Source: Thermoprotei archaeon
GTDB taxonomy: Archaea > Thermoproteota > Thermoprotei > Thermoproteales > B15-G16
Direction of reading: 5' to 3'
Assembly (NCBI GenBank): GCA_003649205.1
Contig: QMRC01000018.1
Location: forward strand, 1 to 20,285
Length of the DNA: 20,285 nt
Shown: one piece after another, positions 10,199 to 20,285 of the stretch
Layout of the letters: the number at the start of each line of letters is the position of its first letter
Position numbering within the stretch: the first letter of the stretch is position 1
Position numbers and translations under genes: made by a program
Notes under the pieces: model-generated
Database searches by the model: none
The model's input: only the letters and a program-made list of their open reading frames with translations
What the model was told of the DNA's origin: nothing

Positions 10199-10280
10199 AC
10201 ATACCTAGGTAATACAACTCAAGACAAACATCTCCCTTATTACACATATCACTTACTCAAGCACCGAGGTGGTAGTAGGT

Positions 10281-10430
10281 ATGTCCTCTCCTCAAGTAAT
10301 GCTGAGAGAACTAGCACAGAGATTCGGAGTGAGCGAAGATATCATACTTGAGCAAGCACTCAAGCTATGGCTCAAGGCCAAGACAGGGAAGGTCAAGGTC
10401 ATTGAATTAGTGGAGGTGACTACACTATGA
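10281..10430 (+). CDS. Small 49-aa protein, helix-helix segment resembling ribbon-helix-helix (CopG-like) proteins
   Basis: Below the ORF-track cutoff. MSSPQVMLRELAQRFGVSEDIILEQALKLWLKAKTGKVKVIELVEVTTL; GAGGTGG RBS at 10266-10272; TGA overlaps the next ATG (ATGA). Confidence 0.72.
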   Translation: MSSPQVMLRELAQRFGVSEDIILEQALKLWLKAKTGKVKVIELVEVTTL

Positions 10431-12412
10431 AGCTCCACCACCTAACCCTAATCCTACTCACATTAGCAGTGATAACACTAACACCACTCACAGTCTACAG
10501 CGCCGAAGTAGATCAAGTACAGTACTACCTCAAGGTAGAGTACACACTACAGGTAGAATCAAGCATAACGTACCTAATCAAACCAGGCAAATCAATACAG
10601 GTAGCACCACTACCCTCACCACCAGGATTCAACCTAAAGTGTATAGAGCTAGAGTTCACGGAACCACTACCACCATCAGTAAAGGTAGAGGGTAAGGACG
10701 TAAAGTTCGTCAAGGTACCACCAAATCTGGTAAAGAAGGTAATTGTCTACGGTGAGAGAGCTGTACTAATCAACAAGGGGAATGAAGTGATTAGAGTTAG
10801 AGCAAATAGAGTATTCAAGTACACACAGACAACATACATACCGATTAGAGAGCTTAGGATCAAGGTAGAGACACCGGAGGTACCAAAGACCTTCGGAACA
10901 AGTAGCCTAGTGATGAAGATAGAGCTAGATAACTACGCACCATACAGGATAAAAGACGTAATAACACCACACGGAACATCACTACTTAGACCAGACATAC
11001 AGGAACAGTACCCACCAGACACAACATCGATAGACTACAAGCACGTAGTGATTAAGCTAGGTAGAGAACTACCAACAGGAACCTACACCATAGTGCTAGA
11101 GAAGGGTAAGGAGTACGTACTACCATCAGCAATGCTAGTAGCAGGAGAAAGCTTCTACAACCTAACCATACCACCAATGACAACAGAACAAATCTCAACA
11201 CCACTACCCGAGAAGGGGTGGAAACACCTAGGATACGTCGTACTGATATCAACCGTGTACCCAGTAACGGAAGTAGAGAAAGGTGATGTCAAGATCACAG
11301 CAGACCTTGTAGATAAGGTAATGATTGAGAAGAGGACTATCTCGGTAGCAGGAATAAGCTACCTAATACCACCAATCAAGTTCAAGACCTGGATAAAAGC
11401 ATACATAGTCTACGGAACAACACTACAGATAGAGAACACCTTCAGCTACCCAGTAATAGTCATCTACATACCACTCAAGTACAGAGAAGTAGGTAAGTGG
11501 ACAGAGAAAGGACTAGAGATAAAGGTAAGTGAGAACGACATAGCAACCTCAGTCTACGCATACCTAGTAGTACAGGTACCAGAGCACGCAGAGATAAAGT
11601 CAGTAGTGACACCAAGTGGAGCAATCTACGAGAACTACGTAGATAGCGAAGTACCGTGGGCAGGAATCAACAGGACAGTATCCATAACCGAGAAACAAGC
11701 ATACATCGCAGTGAAGATAGGTGAAGTCTACGAAGTAGGAACCTACAGATTCTTCATCAAGTGGAAACCAATGACAGTAAAGGTAATAGATACAGCTGGT
11801 AACCCACTACCAAACGCAACAATAACCATAGAAGGACCCATAACCACAACACTGACAACAGATGCAACAGGAAAAGTAACAACAGTACTCTACAGACCAG
11901 GACCATACACCATATCGATCAAGTACATGGGAGTTGAAGTAGGTAAGTACGCCCTAGGAACAGTACTGAAGACAGACATCTCAGTAATGGCACAAGTATA
12001 CAACCTCAAGCTAAAGGTAGTTGGAGTTAGAGAGCAACCAATAGAGAACGCAATTATCAAGGTAATGACAGAGACAGGTAAAGTCATCACAGTAGCGAGA
12101 ACAGATACGAACGGAACAGCAGTAATAAAGCAACTACCAAGAGGAAAGTACAGGATTGAGGTCAAGTACGTCAAGACATCAGCAATCAAGACAGTAGAGC
12201 TAGATAACAACAAGGAGGAGGAGATCAAGCTAGACATATTCATGGAACTACCAGTAATAGGACCAGTAACAACACTAGAAGCACTACTACTAACAGGAGG
12301 AATAGGTGGAGGAACAATAGCACTAGCACTAATAGGGAAGCTAGGTAGGAGAAAGGAGGAAGACGTAGAAGAGGAAGAACCAGAGATAGAGACAGAATTC
12401 ATAGAGGAATAG
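10427..12412 (+). CDS. Secreted, C-terminally membrane-anchored surface protein with two carboxypeptidase-regulatory-like beta-sandwich repeats
   Basis: Sec signal (MKLHHLTLILLTLAV...YSA); beta-rich body; repeats VKVIDTAGNPLPNATI...TDATG...GPYTI and LKVVGVREQPIENAII...TDTNG...GKYRI; C-terminal TM, then RRK and an acidic tail. Confidence 0.85.
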   Translation: MKLHHLTLILLTLAVITLTPLTVYSAEVDQVQYYLKVEYTLQVESSITYLIKPGKSIQVAPLPSPPGFNLKCIELEFTEPLPPSVKVEGKDVKFVKVPPNLVKKVIVYGERAVLINKGNEVIRVRANRVFKYTQTTYIPIRELRIKVETPEVPKTFGTSSLVMKIELDNYAPYRIKDVITPHGTSLLRPDIQEQYPPDTTSIDYKHVVIKLGRELPTGTYTIVLEKGKEYVLPSAMLVAGESFYNLTIPPMTTEQISTPLPEKGWKHLGYVVLISTVYPVTEVEKGDVKITADLVDKVMIEKRTISVAGISYLIPPIKFKTWIKAYIVYGTTLQIENTFSYPVIVIYIPLKYREVGKWTEKGLEIKVSENDIATSVYAYLVVQVPEHAEIKSVVTPSGAIYENYVDSEVPWAGINRTVSITEKQAYIAVKIGEVYEVGTYRFFIKWKPMTVKVIDTAGNPLPNATITIEGPITTTLTTDATGKVTTVLYRPGPYTISIKYMGVEVGKYALGTVLKTDISVMAQVYNLKLKVVGVREQPIENAIIKVMTETGKVITVARTDTNGTAVIKQLPRGKYRIEVKYVKTSAIKTVELDNNKEEEIKLDIFMELPVIGPVTTLEALLLTGGIGGGTIALALIGKLGRRKEEDVEEEEPEIETEFIEE

Positions 12413-13799: not shown

Positions 13800-13829
13800 A
13801 CCACCTAATCACTTACTCACTTTCTGAAC

Positions 13830-13923: not shown

Positions 13924-15483
13924 ATGAGTTACAGCAGTTCTTCAGTGAGTAGGAGGAATGTAGTTCATCCAGTAGCTAGCATCAGAGATGAACTTCGTGA
14001 GAAAGGGTATGCAGTTGTTGATTTCTATGCTGTTAATCCTCCTCATGCTTACACGGTTATTGCTCGTGAGATCACTACTGGTAGGTTGATGTACTTCGTA
14101 ATTGAGCCTCCTCTAAGTGAGGAAGATCATAGGGTTTTGAAGGAGCTTAAGGAGTTGCTGTATGAAGAGTGTCGTGATCTCGACTCATTCCCCAATAAGG
14201 GTAGTGAGGAAGTGTTGAGGAAGTACATTGAGAGTAAGGTCAGAGATATCATCAATAAGTACAGTATTGAACTTCCAAGACCTGAAGCACTGAGTAAGTA
14301 CATGTACTACCTGATTAGGGACTTCATTGGTTATGGTAAGATTGATTCACTCATGAGAGATCCATACCTAGAGGATATCCTCTGTGATGGTGTTGGATCA
14401 CCTATCTATGTTTGGCACAGATTCTACGAATCAATGCCAACAAACATCGTATTCGATAGTCTTGAAGAGCTTGAGTCCTTCGTAACTAAACTTGCGTATA
14501 GAGCTGGTAAGCAAATCAGCATAGCAGATCCGATTGTTGAGGGTTCTCTACCTGATGGCTCGAGAGTACACATAACATTGACCGAGGTATCGAGGAGAGG
14601 CCCAACCTTTAGCATCCGTAGATTCAGTATTGAGGTCTTAACAATTATCGACCTACTAATCCAAAATACGATATCTGTTGAGGAAGCTGCGTACCTCTGG
14701 TACCTCGTCGATAACATGAGGACCATCATCATAACAGGTGCTACAGGTGCAGGTAAGACCACACTCCTAAACGCTATAGCTATGTTCATCAGACCTGAGT
14801 GTAGAGTCATTACGATAGAGGAGGTTCCAGAGCTTAGACTACCACACGAGCACTGGGTACCACTCGTAGCCAGACCATCTAGAGAAGCATACGTTAGAGA
14901 CGTTACACTATTCGACCTACTGAAGTCTAGCCTCAGAATGAGACCTGACTACATTATCGTAGGTGAGATTCGTGGTGAAGAAGCATTCGTACTATTTCAG
15001 GCACTAGCTACAGGTCACGCAGGTCTCTGCACCATGCACGCTGAGTCCATCGAGTACGCTATAAGGAGGTTACTCACGAAGCCAATGAACATACCGCCAA
15101 TACTCATACCACTAGCTAACGTCTTCATCCACATATCCAGAGTTAAGCTAGGTGATAGAATTGTGAGGAGAGTTGTCAGAATATGTGAAGTTGAGGATGT
15201 TGATGAGAAAGGTAACGTCAAGATTAGAGATATCTTCAGATGGACACCTCTCAATGATAAACACGAGAAAATCGGTGATAGTGTAGTGCTTAGGAGGATT
15301 GCAGAGGTTAAGTTCATACACCCAACACACATAGAGCAGGAACTCAAGAGAAGAGCCACAATCCTGAAGACACTCATGGAGTTGAAGTTAAGGGACTTCG
15401 CTACTGTTAGCAAGGTAATCAGAGAGTACTACTACAGACCTGAACTAGTTTACCTAAGGGCAACCGCAAAAGCACTACCATAG
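13924..15483 (+). CDS. Type IV pilus assembly ATPase (VirB11/TadA/FlaI family)
   Basis: Archaeal N-terminal domain (YFVIEPPL, RDFIGYGKID), Walker A GATGAGKT, Asp box TIEE, Walker B IIVGEIRG, His box TGH...TMHA. Confidence 0.95.
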   Translation: MSYSSSSVSRRNVVHPVASIRDELREKGYAVVDFYAVNPPHAYTVIAREITTGRLMYFVIEPPLSEEDHRVLKELKELLYEECRDLDSFPNKGSEEVLRKYIESKVRDIINKYSIELPRPEALSKYMYYLIRDFIGYGKIDSLMRDPYLEDILCDGVGSPIYVWHRFYESMPTNIVFDSLEELESFVTKLAYRAGKQISIADPIVEGSLPDGSRVHITLTEVSRRGPTFSIRRFSIEVLTIIDLLIQNTISVEEAAYLWYLVDNMRTIIITGATGAGKTTLLNAIAMFIRPECRVITIEEVPELRLPHEHWVPLVARPSREAYVRDVTLFDLLKSSLRMRPDYIIVGEIRGEEAFVLFQALATGHAGLCTMHAESIEYAIRRLLTKPMNIPPILIPLANVFIHISRVKLGDRIVRRVVRICEVEDVDEKGNVKIRDIFRWTPLNDKHEKIGDSVVLRRIAEVKFIHPTHIEQELKRRATILKTLMELKLRDFATVSKVIREYYYRPELVYLRATAKALP

Positions 15484-15496
15484 TGGAGGTGGTACA

Positions 15497-16381
15497 TTGC
15501 TCAAGAACTTGAGAGATAGGTTAGTGAACTCCGATGCAAACTCATTCATAGGTAGGTTCATGAACTCACTACACAGGTACTACTTGAAGAGTGGTGTTGA
15601 GGAACCATTTATAGCGTATGTGGATAAGTCGATAAGGTATGTAGTGACTACAGCAATCTCAACACTAACAATCTCCACAGTACTACACACACTACTCCTT
15701 AGGTACAGCATATTCACGGGATTAGCATCATCACTATCACTGACAGTAGCAGCTACCTCACTAGCAATCTTGATCAGGGTACTGTACCCACTCTACAGAG
15801 TACGTAAGAGGAGGAGAGAAATAGAGCAAAACCTCGTATACACCGTAGCGTGTATAGTTACCTTAGCAGCAGCTAACTTGAGACCTGATGTAATTATTGA
15901 GAGGGTATCTGAAATAGAGGTGTCTAGTGCTATCAGGTACGAGCTTAGGAGAATAACGAGGAATGTAAGAGCTTTTGGATTAAGCATCGTGAGAGCACTT
16001 GAGGTAGCTATAGAGCACACACCATCACCATCACTTGCAGAGTTCCTAAAAGGTCTAGTAGATACCATCAGGACTACAGGAAACATAGCAAGCTACGCAA
16101 ACTTCGTACTAGAGAGCTTGCTTAGGAAGAAGATCGAGAACATGAGAAGCGCACTCAACTCACTATCGCTAATAGTCGAGATCTACGTAGTGATCATCGT
16201 CGTACTACCACTACTACTCATAGTAATGCTAGTTGTCATAGGTACCATAACACCAACACTAGGATTCGCAGGACTAGCAGTACCAGTACCAGCACTACTC
16301 ACACTACTCATCTTCATACTAACACCCATCCTCGGAATAGCTATGTACCTCATAATAGACACAATAGTTTCGAGCCTGTGA
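15497..16381 (+). CDS. Type II secretion/T4P platform membrane protein (TadC/GspF family)
   Basis: TM pair, cytoplasmic GspF domain (ELRRI...FGLSIVRAL...TPSPSLAEFL.GL...TTGN), C-terminal TMs; GGAGGTGG RBS. Confidence 0.88.
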   Translation: MLKNLRDRLVNSDANSFIGRFMNSLHRYYLKSGVEEPFIAYVDKSIRYVVTTAISTLTISTVLHTLLLRYSIFTGLASSLSLTVAATSLAILIRVLYPLYRVRKRRREIEQNLVYTVACIVTLAAANLRPDVIIERVSEIEVSSAIRYELRRITRNVRAFGLSIVRALEVAIEHTPSPSLAEFLKGLVDTIRTTGNIASYANFVLESLLRKKIENMRSALNSLSLIVEIYVVIIVVLPLLLIVMLVVIGTITPTLGFAGLAVPVPALLTLLIFILTPILGIAMYLIIDTIVSSL

Positions 16382-17322
16382 CCATGGTTAAGTACATAGA
16401 GTTAAGAGGTAAAAACCTCGTAATACTACTCACGACATCAGCACTAGCCCTCCTACTCCTAGTCATAGTAATACCACTCATGATCGTACTACCACACCTG
16501 AGAAGACAAGGTATTGAAGTAGTATCAAGACACCTACCAATACCACTAATCGTAAACCCCCTACTAAACACACTAATGACAGTAGGGTTTAGCCTATCAA
16601 TCCTACCACTAGCTATCGTCATGTACATAAACGACATGTACGTAAGCAACATAGAGGATAACATACCAATAGCACTGAGAGCACTAGCAGATACAGTAGC
16701 ATCAGGCATCCCCCTACCAAGAGCTATAGAGGTAATTGCTAGAGGTAGGTACGGTGCATTGAGCTTAGAGATGAGAAACGTCGTATCCCAAATACTACTA
16801 GGTAAGACATTTGAAGAAGCAATACAGTACCTCTCAAGGAAATTCCCAACACCAATAATCAAGAGATTCGTAACCATCCTCATAGAGGCATATAGAAGCG
16901 GAGGTAGAGTAGCACAGGTACTACACGCAGCAGCTAACGTAATGTCATCAATAAGAGCATTCGAAACAGAGAAGAGAACTAGATTAAAACCCTACGTCTC
17001 ACTCCTCTACATGATAACCTACATCTACGTCCTCGTTGGAGCACTTATAGTGTATGGATTTGTAGAGTCAATAGAGACCATGGCAGCGAAAGCGAGTGGC
17101 TTCCTACAGGTCGCCATAACAACTGAAGAAGCAGCATCACTACTACACTTCGGACTACTAGTTCAATGCATTATCTCAGGTGCTATAATCGGTAAGATAT
17201 TGAGAGGTAGAGCTGTACTCGGAATACCACACATGCTGATAATGCTATCAACCGCAACAGTACTCTACTACATGATCCTACCACCACTAGTTAAGTTACT
17301 GATACCAATAGGAGCGAGATAG
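16378..17322 (+). CDS. Second T4P platform membrane protein (TadC/GspF family)
   Basis: IEDNIP.ALR.LAD...SGIPL.RAI, YGALS.EM, GKTFEEA, EAYRSGG and RLKPY motifs; GTGA overlap with the previous gene. Confidence 0.9.
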   Translation: MTMVKYIELRGKNLVILLTTSALALLLLVIVIPLMIVLPHLRRQGIEVVSRHLPIPLIVNPLLNTLMTVGFSLSILPLAIVMYINDMYVSNIEDNIPIALRALADTVASGIPLPRAIEVIARGRYGALSLEMRNVVSQILLGKTFEEAIQYLSRKFPTPIIKRFVTILIEAYRSGGRVAQVLHAAANVMSSIRAFETEKRTRLKPYVSLLYMITYIYVLVGALIVYGFVESIETMAAKASGFLQVAITTEEAASLLHFGLLVQCIISGAIIGKILRGRAVLGIPHMLIMLSTATVLYYMILPPLVKLLIPIGAR

Positions 17323-17332
17323 GTTAAGTACC

Positions 17333-18844
17333 TTAGAGTATCCCCAGTAAGCTAACTGCTCTCCTCCACTTAGCAATAGTCTCACAGAGCTCCCTAACCA
17401 TCGTAGACACCCTCTCAACATCACCACCAGGATCAACACGAGCAATAACACAGCACTCAGGAGATAGACAAACACAGTAGTACGACCCATCAACATACTC
17501 AATAGAGAAGCTCAAACCCCTCGCAGTAACCTCACGAACAACCTTCTCACAGACCCTGTAGTCAACATCACCAAACACATCCCTAGTACCACCGTACTCA
17601 ATCACTAGACCCCTAACGTACTTAAGCACAGAATTCACCAACTCACTAATAGCTGGTACCTGAGGAACTTCAGAACCCCTAACCTCCCTCTTCTCCTCAA
17701 CCTCACTAACCTTCTCCTCAACAGCTACAGGAGCCCCCTCAGTAAACTTAGGTAGAACCTCCTCAAGCTTAGGTACAGGAGCAACCTCCTCAACCTCAGC
17801 CTTAGCCTCAGGCTTCACCTCAACCCTGACCTCCGACTTAACCTCAACAACACCCTCCCTCCTCCTAGCACCCTTCTCCTCTAGAAGAGACTCAATGAAG
17901 AGAGTAAACTTCTCACCAATCTCACCAATCCTCAAAAAGTCAATAGCGTAGAGATTCTGAGTAGCACTAGTATCCAGAGCACGACCAATACTCGGGTGAA
18001 TAAGTATGAAGGCATCACCCCTAACATCGAGTGACTTACCGAAGAGAGAAGACAGCGCAGTACTAGCCGCATCAGCACTAGGGCAGATATCTACGTACAG
18101 CCTCAGCTCACGATCATCAAACCTACCAACAGCAACAACATCGAACACATGCTCAACACCAGAAGCACCCTGAATCCTACCCTGAACCTGAGTAGAGAAA
18201 CCATACCTAGACAAGACATCAGTCACTACCTTAACTATGAGCACCTTAATGACATCACTAACAACATCACGACGAATCCTATACGTGTAGAGAGGCTCAA
18301 GAACAGCCTCAAACTTAGAAAACTCACGACCACAAGAGAGACAACGATGCTTAACCTCAGGAGACTCAAACCTAGCACCACAGCGATCACAGGAAAAACA
18401 CGAACCAAAAACCTTAAGCTCCTCAGCAGGAACCTCCCTACCACAACCAGGACAGAAGAACCTACCACCCCTCACAAAGTTCTTAGAAGTATCAATGTAA
18501 CCACAGACAGTATGAATCAAGAGCTGAACAGAAGAAACACTCAAACTACCACACCTAGGACACACATAGAAAGTAGCTAGAGAACAAGAACCACACCCAG
18601 GACAAGTAACCACAGAACCATGCTCAACACGCTCAAAAACACCCAACTCAACAAGCCTCTCAAGAAGATCAGAAACCTCACCCCTACGAACATACTGATC
18701 ACCAACAACAAAGCAAACACCCTCACCAGTAAGAGATGAAGAAACCTCAAAAGAACCAGAATCAAGCATAGTCACTAACAGATTAAACGCCCTATCCTCC
18801 CTCTCAATGAATTCACTTAGAGAAATCATAGAGGAACCATCCAT
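17333..18844 (-). CDS. Multidomain protein: TackOD1-like multi-Zn-ribbon domain, degenerate restriction-endonuclease fold, E/V/K linker, C-terminal alpha/beta domain
   Basis: Six C/HxxC pairs after a wHTH-like segment (LLERLVELGVFER) ending in YTYRI; then GRIQGASGVEHVFDVVA; then a low-complexity linker. Start probably ATG 18844 (TATA-like CTTAAAAA at about 18896-18903). Confidence 0.75.
   Translation of the reverse strand: MDGSSMISLSEFIEREDRAFNLLVTMLDSGSFEVSSSLTGEGVCFVVGDQYVRRGEVSDLLERLVELGVFERVEHGSVVTCPGCGSCSLATFYVCPRCGSLSVSSVQLLIHTVCGYIDTSKNFVRGGRFFCPGCGREVPAEELKVFGSCFSCDRCGARFESPEVKHRCLSCGREFSKFEAVLEPLYTYRIRRDVVSDVIKVLIVKVVTDVLSRYGFSTQVQGRIQGASGVEHVFDVVAVGRFDDRELRLYVDICPSADAASTALSSLFGKSLDVRGDAFILIHPSIGRALDTSATQNLYAIDFLRIGEIGEKFTLFIESLLEEKGARRREGVVEVKSEVRVEVKPEAKAEVEEVAPVPKLEEVLPKFTEGAPVAVEEKVSEVEEKREVRGSEVPQVPAISELVNSVLKYVRGLVIEYGGTRDVFGDVDYRVCEKVVREVTARGLSFSIEYVDGSYYCVCLSPECCVIARVDPGGDVERVSTMVRELCETIAKWRRAVSLLGIL
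17651..17881 (-). repeat. Low-complexity E/V/K/P linker-coding region
   Basis: Encodes VEVKSEVRVEVKPEAKAEVEEVAPVPKLEEV...; recurrent cctcaac/cctcag units on the + strand. Confidence 0.6.
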
Positions 18845-18955: not shown

Positions 18956-19453
18956 CTATGCCTGTTGTTGTGGAACTGTGTAGCTAAATGAGTACAGTGC
19001 TTCAACACCTTTTGCTGTAACAACCTTAACGTATATCGTGTACGTCGTACCAGACTCTAGAGAAATATTTGTAACAGTACCGACCACTCCACCTACCGTA
19101 TTTGGATTAATAGATGTCTGTGATTGATCTTGGATTTGAGCCTTCGTATAGCCATTAGTTAAGGAACCTTCTGGTCCTACAATATCGATATACATAGCAT
19201 CAATAGTAACAGTTTCTTCACCAACATTCCTGACATAAGCAGTTACTGTTAGTTCCTTAGTGTTGCTATCGTATGATGCTGTTGCTGCTTCTATCTTTAT
19301 TTCTTCCTTAAGTTCTGTTGGTGTTTCTGATGGTGTTGTTGCTCCTATGAATCCTGTTACCCATAGGTACACTAGTACTGATGCGATGACGGCGATTGTC
19401 ACTAGGAGTAGGACAGCAACAACGGGCTCTATACCCTTCTTCCTAAATCCCAT
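18956..19453 (-). CDS. Archaeal type IV pilin, probable major pilin
   Basis: MGFRKKG|IEPVVAVLLLVTIAVIASVLVYLWVTGF; YVRNVG, IDAMYI and VKVVTAKG motifs; AGGTGA RBS, own TATA box, and a T-run after the stop. Confidence 0.93.
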   Translation of the reverse strand: MGFRKKGIEPVVAVLLLVTIAVIASVLVYLWVTGFIGATTPSETPTELKEEIKIEAATASYDSNTKELTVTAYVRNVGEETVTIDAMYIDIVGPEGSLTNGYTKAQIQDQSQTSINPNTVGGVVGTVTNISLESGTTYTIYVKVVTAKGVEALYSFSYTVPQQQA

Positions 19454-19945: not shown

Positions 19946-20285
19946 TTGAGGGATGAGTTTCTTAGGTTGCTTAGGGAGGATGTTGAATTTAGGTATGCTG
20001 TACTTGGTCTACTGGGGATAGAGGAAGTTCTGAAGAGTATTAGCAAGAATACTGAGGCTATTAAGGATTTACAGCAACAAGTAAGAGATCTGCAGCATGC
20101 TGAGGAGGTGTTTAGGGAGGGTATGAGGGGTGTTGTTGAGAGGATTCTTGGTGTTGCTAGGGTTGAGAGGTGGTGTTATGTTGATGAGGAGGGTTTTGTC
20201 TATGGTTATCCTGTTGTTATCGATGTTGATTTAGTTGTTAAGGATGGTGAGCATATACTGATTGAGGTTAAGTCTAGTGTTGATC
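19946..20285 (+). CDS. COG5493/DUF3782-type coiled-coil PD-(D/E)xK nuclease-fold protein, 5' part (runs off window; possibly a pseudogene)
   Basis: Not in the ORF track. Translation: LRDEFLRLLREDVEFRYAVLGLLGIEEV...AEEVFREGMRGVVERILG...DEEGFVYGYPVVIDVDLVVKDGEHILIEVKSSV, with a D...ExK motif. TTTATAAG TATA at about 19895-19902. Confidence 0.82.
   Translation, partial: MRDEFLRLLREDVEFRYAVLGLLGIEEVLKSISKNTEAIKDLQQQVRDLQHAEEVFREGMRGVVERILGVARVERWCYVDEEGFVYGYPVVIDVDLVVKDGEHILIEVKSSVD

Follow-up and report, generated by a model that had tools for sequence, protein, structure and literature searches.

The minus-strand gene at 17333..18844 of the 20,285-nucleotide stretch analysed here (hereafter the window; contig QMRC01000018.1 of a Thermoprotei archaeon, assembly GCA_003649205.1) codes for a cytoplasmic protein of the TackOD1/arCOG06883 family, the core of which extends beyond the Pfam model to include a winged-helix-like head and a nuclease fold that is Mrr-like but devoid of the catalytic Lys. 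A genetic tie links this family to a type IV pilus module that consists of an assembly ATPase and two half-size TadC genes. To the common core the window protein adds a 72-residue acidic linker and a putative roadblock-like domain, a combination found, among the sets searched, only in the host genus. We read the protein as one dedicated to control of the pilus from the cytoplasm, and tentatively suggest that it may act as a one-component-style, DNA-binding regulator of the pilus locus.

To our knowledge, a few Sulfolobales factors are the only dedicated cytoplasmic regulators described for archaeal type IV pili. Although TackOD1 proteins are widespread and tightly tied to one pilus module, their function is obscure, and fusion to a roadblock-like module is a concrete hint at their working partners. 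This genus-restricted fusion is the only element not found elsewhere; the gain is modest because the TackOD1 family and its pilus link are already published (Galperin et al. 2018, PMC5847659; Makarova et al. 2016, PMC4858521), so that the description of the gene as a whole as a novel pilus regulator, made in a preliminary description based on the DNA alone, does not hold. The coding sequence and its parts are as follows:

17333..18844 (-): TackOD1-family coding sequence, a stop-free frame of 503 residues plus stop
18629..18823 (-): winged-helix-like N-terminal domain, residues ~8-72, with an AlphaFold2 per-residue confidence (pLDDT) above 88
18275..18622 (-): TackOD1 zinc-ribbon cluster, residues 75-190, 11 Cys and 1 His in six pairs
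17870..18262 (-): Mrr/AF1548-like PD-(D/E)xK fold without the canonical Lys, residues 195-325
17654..17869 (-): disordered E/V/K/P-rich linker, residues 326-397, pLDDT below 50
17336..17653 (-): C-terminal domain modelled with a roadblock/LC7 fold, residues 398-503, 106 residues including 6 Cys

A shorter database form of the same protein starts five codons in, at the ATG at 18829, and counts 498 residues; this ATG is the likelier start, because the database form begins there and the closest homologue aligns from residue 8.

Assignment to TackOD1 is secured by the Pfam model PF18551, which matches residues 55-190 (E 2.9e-22; 79.6 bits, against a cut-off of 32) and finds no second copy in the 2.07-Mb assembly (genome scan, 82.6 bits). 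All six of the C/HxxC pairs listed in the preliminary description are present in the translation (CPGC 81-84, CPRC 95-98, HTVC 111-114, CPGC 131-134, CDRC 152-155 and CLSC 168-171), with each ligand column retained in 53-57 of the 57 members of the family alignment; judged from their pattern, these 12 ligands would form three zinc sites. In the sections considered here, Galperin et al. 2018 (PMC5847659) define TackOD1 by five CxxC and one HxxC, distinguish stand-alone, REC-TackOD1 and REC-wHTH-TackOD1 forms (REC, receiver; wHTH, winged helix-turn-helix), equate the domain with arCOG06883, place it in thaumarchaeal type IV pilus loci and term its function obscure. The corresponding sections of Makarova et al. 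2016 (PMC4858521) list arCOG06883 as a 'double Zn-ribbon' among uncharacterised cytoplasmic proteins tied to pilus loci. The window protein belongs to the same hidden Markov model (HMM) family, has the same five CxxC and one HxxC and likewise lies in a type IV pilus locus; unlike the REC-fused forms it is devoid of a receiver domain, and it comes from its own order, Thermoproteales, whereas most TackOD1 members in the published sections are from Thaumarchaea. The full-text literature searched on TackOD1, arCOG06883 and PF18551 yielded nothing beyond these two papers.

An exhaustive HMMER search of 1.84 billion representatives recovered 1638 relatives at E <= 1e-3, including 55 at E <= 1e-30, to which a core of ~320 residues (head, zinc ribbons and nuclease-like domain) is common. 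The best 150 of the 1638 are nearly all 290-360 residues long and cover query residues 8 to ~320, and none of these 150 extends past query residue 402. Of 301 genomes sampled from the host phylum, 187 contain PF18551 (174 above cut-off), as against none of 14 control genomes; a phmmer comparison of the whole protein with the sequences of the Protein Data Bank (PDB) gave no match below E 0.36. One family member, P0087 (476 residues), ends in a histidine-kinase-type HATPase_c domain (E 8.7e-27), an architecture absent from the forms presented in the considered sections of Galperin et al. 2018 (PMC5847659).

Modelled with AlphaFold2 from the 57-sequence alignment, most of residues 10-330 reaches a pLDDT above 90. 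The head is matched to ArsR-type repressors by VIA-align, a comparison in which a best Z of 7-8 is rated common: 6j0e_B leads with Z 8.0 (root-mean-square deviation (rmsd) 3.9, 78 residues aligned), followed by 3f6v, 2p4w, 7p6f and 1r1u (Z 7.1-7.5). The domain that follows the zinc ribbons (residues 195-327) matches PD-(D/E)xK nucleases. Its first Foldseek match is 1y88 (AF1548; E 5.4e-4), ahead of Cdn1, Bax1, McrC and Can2, and VIA-align pairs it with Bax1 (6p4o_B, Z 11.3, rmsd 3.1, 117 aligned), 1y88_A (Z 10.9, rmsd 3.9, 111 aligned) and NucS (Z 9.0). The same fold is detectable from sequence at the family level, for the family profile matches 1y88_A at E 6.3e-5 and Mrr_cat (PF04471) is found at E <= 0.05 in 7 of 32 other members scanned (2 above cut-off); the window protein itself has no Pfam match to Mrr_cat at E <= 0.1. 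Mrr-type enzymes have a DNA-binding head followed by an Mrr-like domain, a layout similar to that of the TackOD1 core, which is built like an Mrr-type DNA enzyme without the canonical catalytic Lys. Head and nuclease fold together also superpose on Can2/Card1/VC1899-type nucleases over 163-187 residues (Z 9.6-10.7); this likeness is one of layout only, with a high rmsd (5-7 Å), and unlike those nucleases the window protein has a zinc-ribbon insert and neither a CARF sensor nor a catalytic Lys.

The G-x-SG-x-x-H-x-FD segment and the Lys-less VDIC noted in the preliminary description are both found in the translation (GASGVEHVFD at 226-235, VDIC at 251-254), and the family profile alignment confirms the absence of the Lys: the E-C-K of AF1548 pairs with D252-I-C254, where Cys takes the canonical Lys position. 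The catalytic D...(D/E)xK triad is accordingly incomplete, with D235 and D252 present and position 254 occupied by Cys, and the loss is a family-wide trait because none of the 57 aligned members has a Lys there. The surrounding columns are well conserved (out of 57: G226 in 57, S228 in 56, H232 in 51, D235 in 43, D/E252 in 43, K270 as 48 K plus 3 R, D273 in all). Of the earlier label 'inactive nuclease fold', the restriction-endonuclease fold and the missing canonical Lys therefore stand; inactivity itself is a reasonable reading of the sequence and no firmer than that, with D235, D/E252, H232, K270 and D273 conserved.

The neighbours that define the genomic setting are the following:

13924-15483 (+): type IV pilus assembly ATPase (T2SSE; PF00437, E 8.1e-35)
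15497-16381 (+): TadC-like platform gene 1, one T2SSF domain (PF00482, E 3.2e-10)
16378-17322 (+): TadC-like platform gene 2 (TadC2), one T2SSF domain (PF00482, E 2.9e-19), convergent with the TackOD1 gene across a 10-bp gap
18956-19453 (-): pilin-like gene directly upstream of the TackOD1 gene on the same strand (22.9 bits, cut-off 20, with TIGR02537, the archaellin/type IV pilin N-terminal model)

The Pfam and TIGR02537 matches thus agree with the earlier placement of the gene between a pilin gene, termed the major one there and pilin-like here, and the platform genes of a type IV pilus locus. That this setting is a property of the family, on which the earlier reading was made to depend, is upheld by a neighbourhood survey of 40 loci lying well inside long contigs and picked before their neighbours were viewed (37 genomes, some of them close kin). 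A strong homologue of the window ATPase (E <= 1e-90) lies within 9 kb of the TackOD1 gene in 24 of these loci, usually with both half-TadC genes; in one further locus the module is cut at the locus edge, in another the ATPase match is weak, and 14 have none (one of the 14 ends at a contig end). Control regions 150 kb away on the same contigs contain an ATPase homologue in 0 of 20 cases. The window ATPase is 39-54% identical to the ATPases adjoining TackOD1 genes in 23 other loci. Gene orientation varies: the TackOD1 gene may be tail-to-tail with TadC2, as in the window (also, for example, in L044, L046, L047, L056, L067, L069, L070 and L075), divergent from the ATPase gene with gaps of 92-171 bp (L040, L042, L043 and L063), or upstream on the same strand. 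Three genomes were sampled twice, and each of them has one copy linked to a pilus locus and one that is unlinked.

The division of the platform into two adjacent genes of ~290-330 residues with one T2SSF domain each (15497-17322 in the window) accompanies this type of ATPase in most of the 24 linked loci (L042-L079), and 'two TadC' systems are reported for Thermoproteales clade 4B in the considered sections of Makarova et al. 2016 (PMC4858521). In two same-genus loci (L042:11136-12372 and L043:6058-7264) the gene for a KaiC-like ATPase and, after it, an HTH_40 gene are found at a distance of 1.3 kb from the TackOD1 gene, and in the locus with the weak ATPase match a stand-alone response-regulator receiver gene (L060:9478-9867, (-)) converges on the TackOD1 gene, 4 bp from its end.

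How such a protein might control the pilus is suggested by its make-up, from which we infer DNA binding, a regulatory function and a role for the tail. The head and zinc ribbons would bind DNA near pilus promoters; the nuclease-like domain would serve as a dimerisation or sensing module rather than for DNA cutting; and the roadblock-like tail would offer a second dimerisation or partner-docking surface through which control is tuned. Two of the parts are of DNA-binding type, the ArsR-like head (Z 7.1-8.0) and the nuclease fold (Z 10.9-11.3). A regulator on DNA is further favoured because the family is a response-regulator output domain (PMC5847659, sections considered) and includes the histidine-kinase ATPase fusion P0087, because paralogues occur away from pilus loci and divergent promoters are frequent, and because TrmB-type regulators carry a structurally similar domain.

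Several points weigh against this assignment. No shared operator stood out among four intergenic regions of the pilus locus. An exact 12-mer, ATCACTTACTCA, is present in two of them, 5' of a gene for a 661-residue surface-type protein (10248-10259) and between a pilin-like gene and the ATPase gene (13808-13819); at two or fewer mismatches it has 7 matches where 3.7 are expected, and 6 of 100 shuffles reach 7, so that the repeat is not clearly above chance. The Z of the winged helix (7.1-8.0) is borderline, at the level that VIA-align rates as common, and the conserved D235, D/E252, H232, K270 and D273 may leave room for residual catalysis. The roadblock call, discussed below, rests on moderate-confidence models built from two sequences and is unaccompanied by a Pfam match. 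Three further points against a role on DNA speak at the same time for one at the motor: the conserved neighbours are the ATPase/TadC module and not the pilin genes; a Chloroflexota cluster of PilB-like ATPases (771 residues, T2SSE/MshEN, Mrr_cat in 54% of members) carries an Mrr-like domain structurally similar to the nuclease-like domain (query template-modelling (TM) score 0.74, 128 aligned); and the tail, as modelled, has the fold of a class that regulates nucleoside triphosphatases (NTPases).

The protein could accordingly use the pilus ATPase or the TadC platform as its docking site and control assembly or retraction directly, with the nuclease-like domain and the tail serving as protein-protein modules by analogy with MglB and roadblock proteins on NTPase switches. 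Roadblock domains classically act on NTPases, and the gene often converges with TadC2 or immediately precedes the ATPase gene (by 63 bp in L059). The ATPase of the window, for its part, contains no nuclease-like domain in Pfam; in 14 of 40 sampled loci, about a third, no pilus ATPase is found within 9 kb of the family gene; and a winged helix, zinc ribbons and a nuclease fold are typical of nucleic-acid binders. Co-folding of the window ATPase (24-row alignment) with residues 1-330 gave run scores of 0.00, 0.41 and 0.00, in runs made without controls, and is neutral as to binding. Docking on the motor is in our view rather doubtful, and DNA binding seems somewhat likelier than motor binding.

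The tail is the part in which the protein departs from its family. A linker of roughly 75 residues rich in E, V, K and P, followed by a Cys-rich domain of roughly 100, had been read from the translation; the former measures 72 residues, is modelled as disordered and contains 18 E, 17 V, 7 K and 7 P (25% Glu, 24% Val), and the latter measures 106 residues with 6 Cys. The order of elements predicted for this domain is matched exactly by an AlphaFold2 model of the tail alone (residues 392-503, with one orthologue; pLDDT 77.4, predicted TM score (pTM) 0.67), which consists of a helix, two strands, a helix, three strands and a long helix (a-b-b-a-b-b-b-a). Roadblock/LC7 proteins, MglB and LAMTOR are its best structural neighbours, as the preliminary description had anticipated. 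Foldseek places 3kye, a Streptomyces Roadblock/LC7 domain, first (E 1.5e-3), ahead of profilin, EGO/Ragulator subunits, MglB, Asgard roadblocks and MglC, with query TM scores of 0.64 for MglB and LAMTOR2 within a roadblock range of 0.58-0.64; no match of the tail reaches E <= 0.001. Against 48,161 chains, VIA-align again puts 3kye first (Z 8.9, rmsd 2.9, 99 aligned), the roadblock entries scoring 8.9, 8.7, 8.5 and 8.4 (MglB 6hjm, Z 8.4), among non-roadblock neighbours at Z 8.6 (GAF, 4g3k), 7.7 (profilin) and 7.5 (the LasR ligand-binding domain). An independent model of the protein in the ESM Atlas finds Robl_LC7 clusters at TM 0.68-0.69 over 100 residues. By these models, a roadblock-like fold is marginally the best reading of the tail.

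At the level of sequence the tail stands apart. Neither Robl_LC7 (PF03259) nor any other Pfam family matches it at E <= 0.05, and hhalign gives a probability of 0.1 against the Robl_LC7 protein of the same genome and of ~0.1 against a 146-residue protein adjoining a small GTPase. Proteins of 59-191 residues include no homologue and those of 276-881 residues only its own cluster; a scan of metagenome contigs found none, and across 120 genomes of the host class matches are confined to the host genus. A 26-residue match in a Bosea record, from the scan of genome contigs, was taken as chance, and weak matches in one genus (E 0.004-0.009) were rejected on the ground that they fall in an ABC-transporter ATPase. 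In the sets searched the tail is thus restricted to two genomes of the host genus, other relatives in the host order having the 310-340-residue form. The same-genus orthologue carries the tail in the same place, in a gene cut by a contig end, with 91 of 106 residues identical and 6 of 6 Cys kept. The tail is under purifying selection: the rate of synonymous substitution (dS) is 0.49, that of nonsynonymous substitution (dN) 0.066 and their ratio, dN/dS, 0.136, compared to a dN/dS of 0.27 and three indels in the linker.

The same comparison revealed an unusual stretch: the nuclease-like part (17870-18220 in the window, L003:2-352 in the orthologue) is identical in 116 of 117 residues with zero synonymous differences, the linker and tail just downstream show a dS of 0.5-0.6, and over the entire overlap of 2.4 kb identity amounts to 91.6%. 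The identical stretch begins at the contig end of the other assembly, and either recent recombination or an assembly or binning artefact is possible.

Compared to Roadblock/LC7 proteins (MglB, LAMTOR2, Asgard and Streptomyces; PF03259), the tail has the same size and element order; unlike them, it shows no sequence similarity, is Cys-rich, is fused to a DNA-enzyme-like core and has no small GTPase next to it. An alternative is that it is of other descent, a small alpha/beta sandwich resembling GAF, profilin or LasR, which would sense a ligand, a metal or the redox state through its six Cys. GAF, LasR and profilin lie within 1.4 Z of the roadblock entries, the Foldseek E exceeds 0.001, Pfam Robl_LC7 is not found and the hhalign probability is 0.1; the six conserved Cys include C457-x-C459 and C464-C465 on adjacent strands, and their conservation says little because only two sequences are available. 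Set against this, size and strand order are those of a roadblock and not of a GAF domain, and roadblock entries top both structure searches and recur with the independent ESMFold model, which makes a sensor of other descent unlikely. NitrOD3, which occurs in thaumarchaeal response regulators as an output domain related to roadblock, shows by its description in the considered sections of Galperin et al. 2018 (PMC5847659) that the same archaeal group uses roadblock-like domains for signal output; its fusion partner differs from that of the window protein.

If the tail is a roadblock domain, the fusion might be taken as a Rosetta stone, TackOD1 and roadblock acting as one unit that couples an NTPase switch to pilus assembly or expression; the switch would be a small GTPase, such as two that the genome encodes elsewhere, or the pilus ATPase itself, and the system, if true, an archaeal counterpart of the MglA/MglB control of bacterial pili. 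Roadblock/LC7 proteins are reported in archaeal type IV pilus loci separately from TackOD1/arCOG06883, in those parts of the literature that we considered. The search of the genome for a small GTPase partner, suggested in the preliminary description, finds two paralogous Arf/Ras-like small GTPases, of 197 and 209 residues, both on other contigs and unlinked to the pilus locus; no GTPase is present among the scanned open reading frames (ORFs) of the window. The redox/metal or GTPase-linked control put forward in that description draws no support from these results. One membrane-anchored Robl_LC7 protein is likewise encoded on another contig, away from the pilus locus. Stand-alone Robl_LC7 genes number 0 in the linked loci at E <= 1e-4 (all 239 selected ORFs of 85-290 residues, 26 loci), a search in which divergent roadblocks could be overlooked because Pfam misses the tail of the window protein too. 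We regard this coupling as improbable. Around the two GTPase genes themselves, that on contig 4 (L101:1480-2073) adjoins a 260-residue gene without a Pfam match and faces the 146-residue protein, which is of unknown family, while that on contig 1 (L102:1225-1854) adjoins an S-adenosylmethionine (SAM)-methyltransferase-like gene.

That the protein is an active, divergent nuclease processing DNA taken up or exchanged via the pilus is very improbable. In favour are the match of its fold to real nucleases (Bax1 Z 11.3, AF1548 Z 10.9, NucS Z 9.0) and the conservation of D235, D252, H232, K270 and D273. Against it, not one of the 57 aligned members has the canonical (D/E)xK Lys, and 14 of 57 have another residue in place of D235, as do 14 of 57 in place of D252. 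K270..D273 pairs with R..D of AF1548 and so resembles a helix motif common to both more than a catalytic Lys that has moved, and the translation reveals neither a secretion signal nor a membrane anchor.

The remainder of the pilus locus contains, beyond the ATPase gene, two more pilin-like genes and the gene for the 661-residue surface-type protein (10427-12412, (+)). The N-terminus of the latter is signal-like; two CarboxypepD_reg/prealbumin-like domains, a membrane helix at the C-terminal end and an acidic tail are also present, and the protein is a candidate pilus-associated or surface adhesin. On the other side, a gene combining DUF3782 with a PDDEXK_10 domain of the nuclease superfamily adjoins the locus (19946-20284, (+)) and runs past the end of the window.

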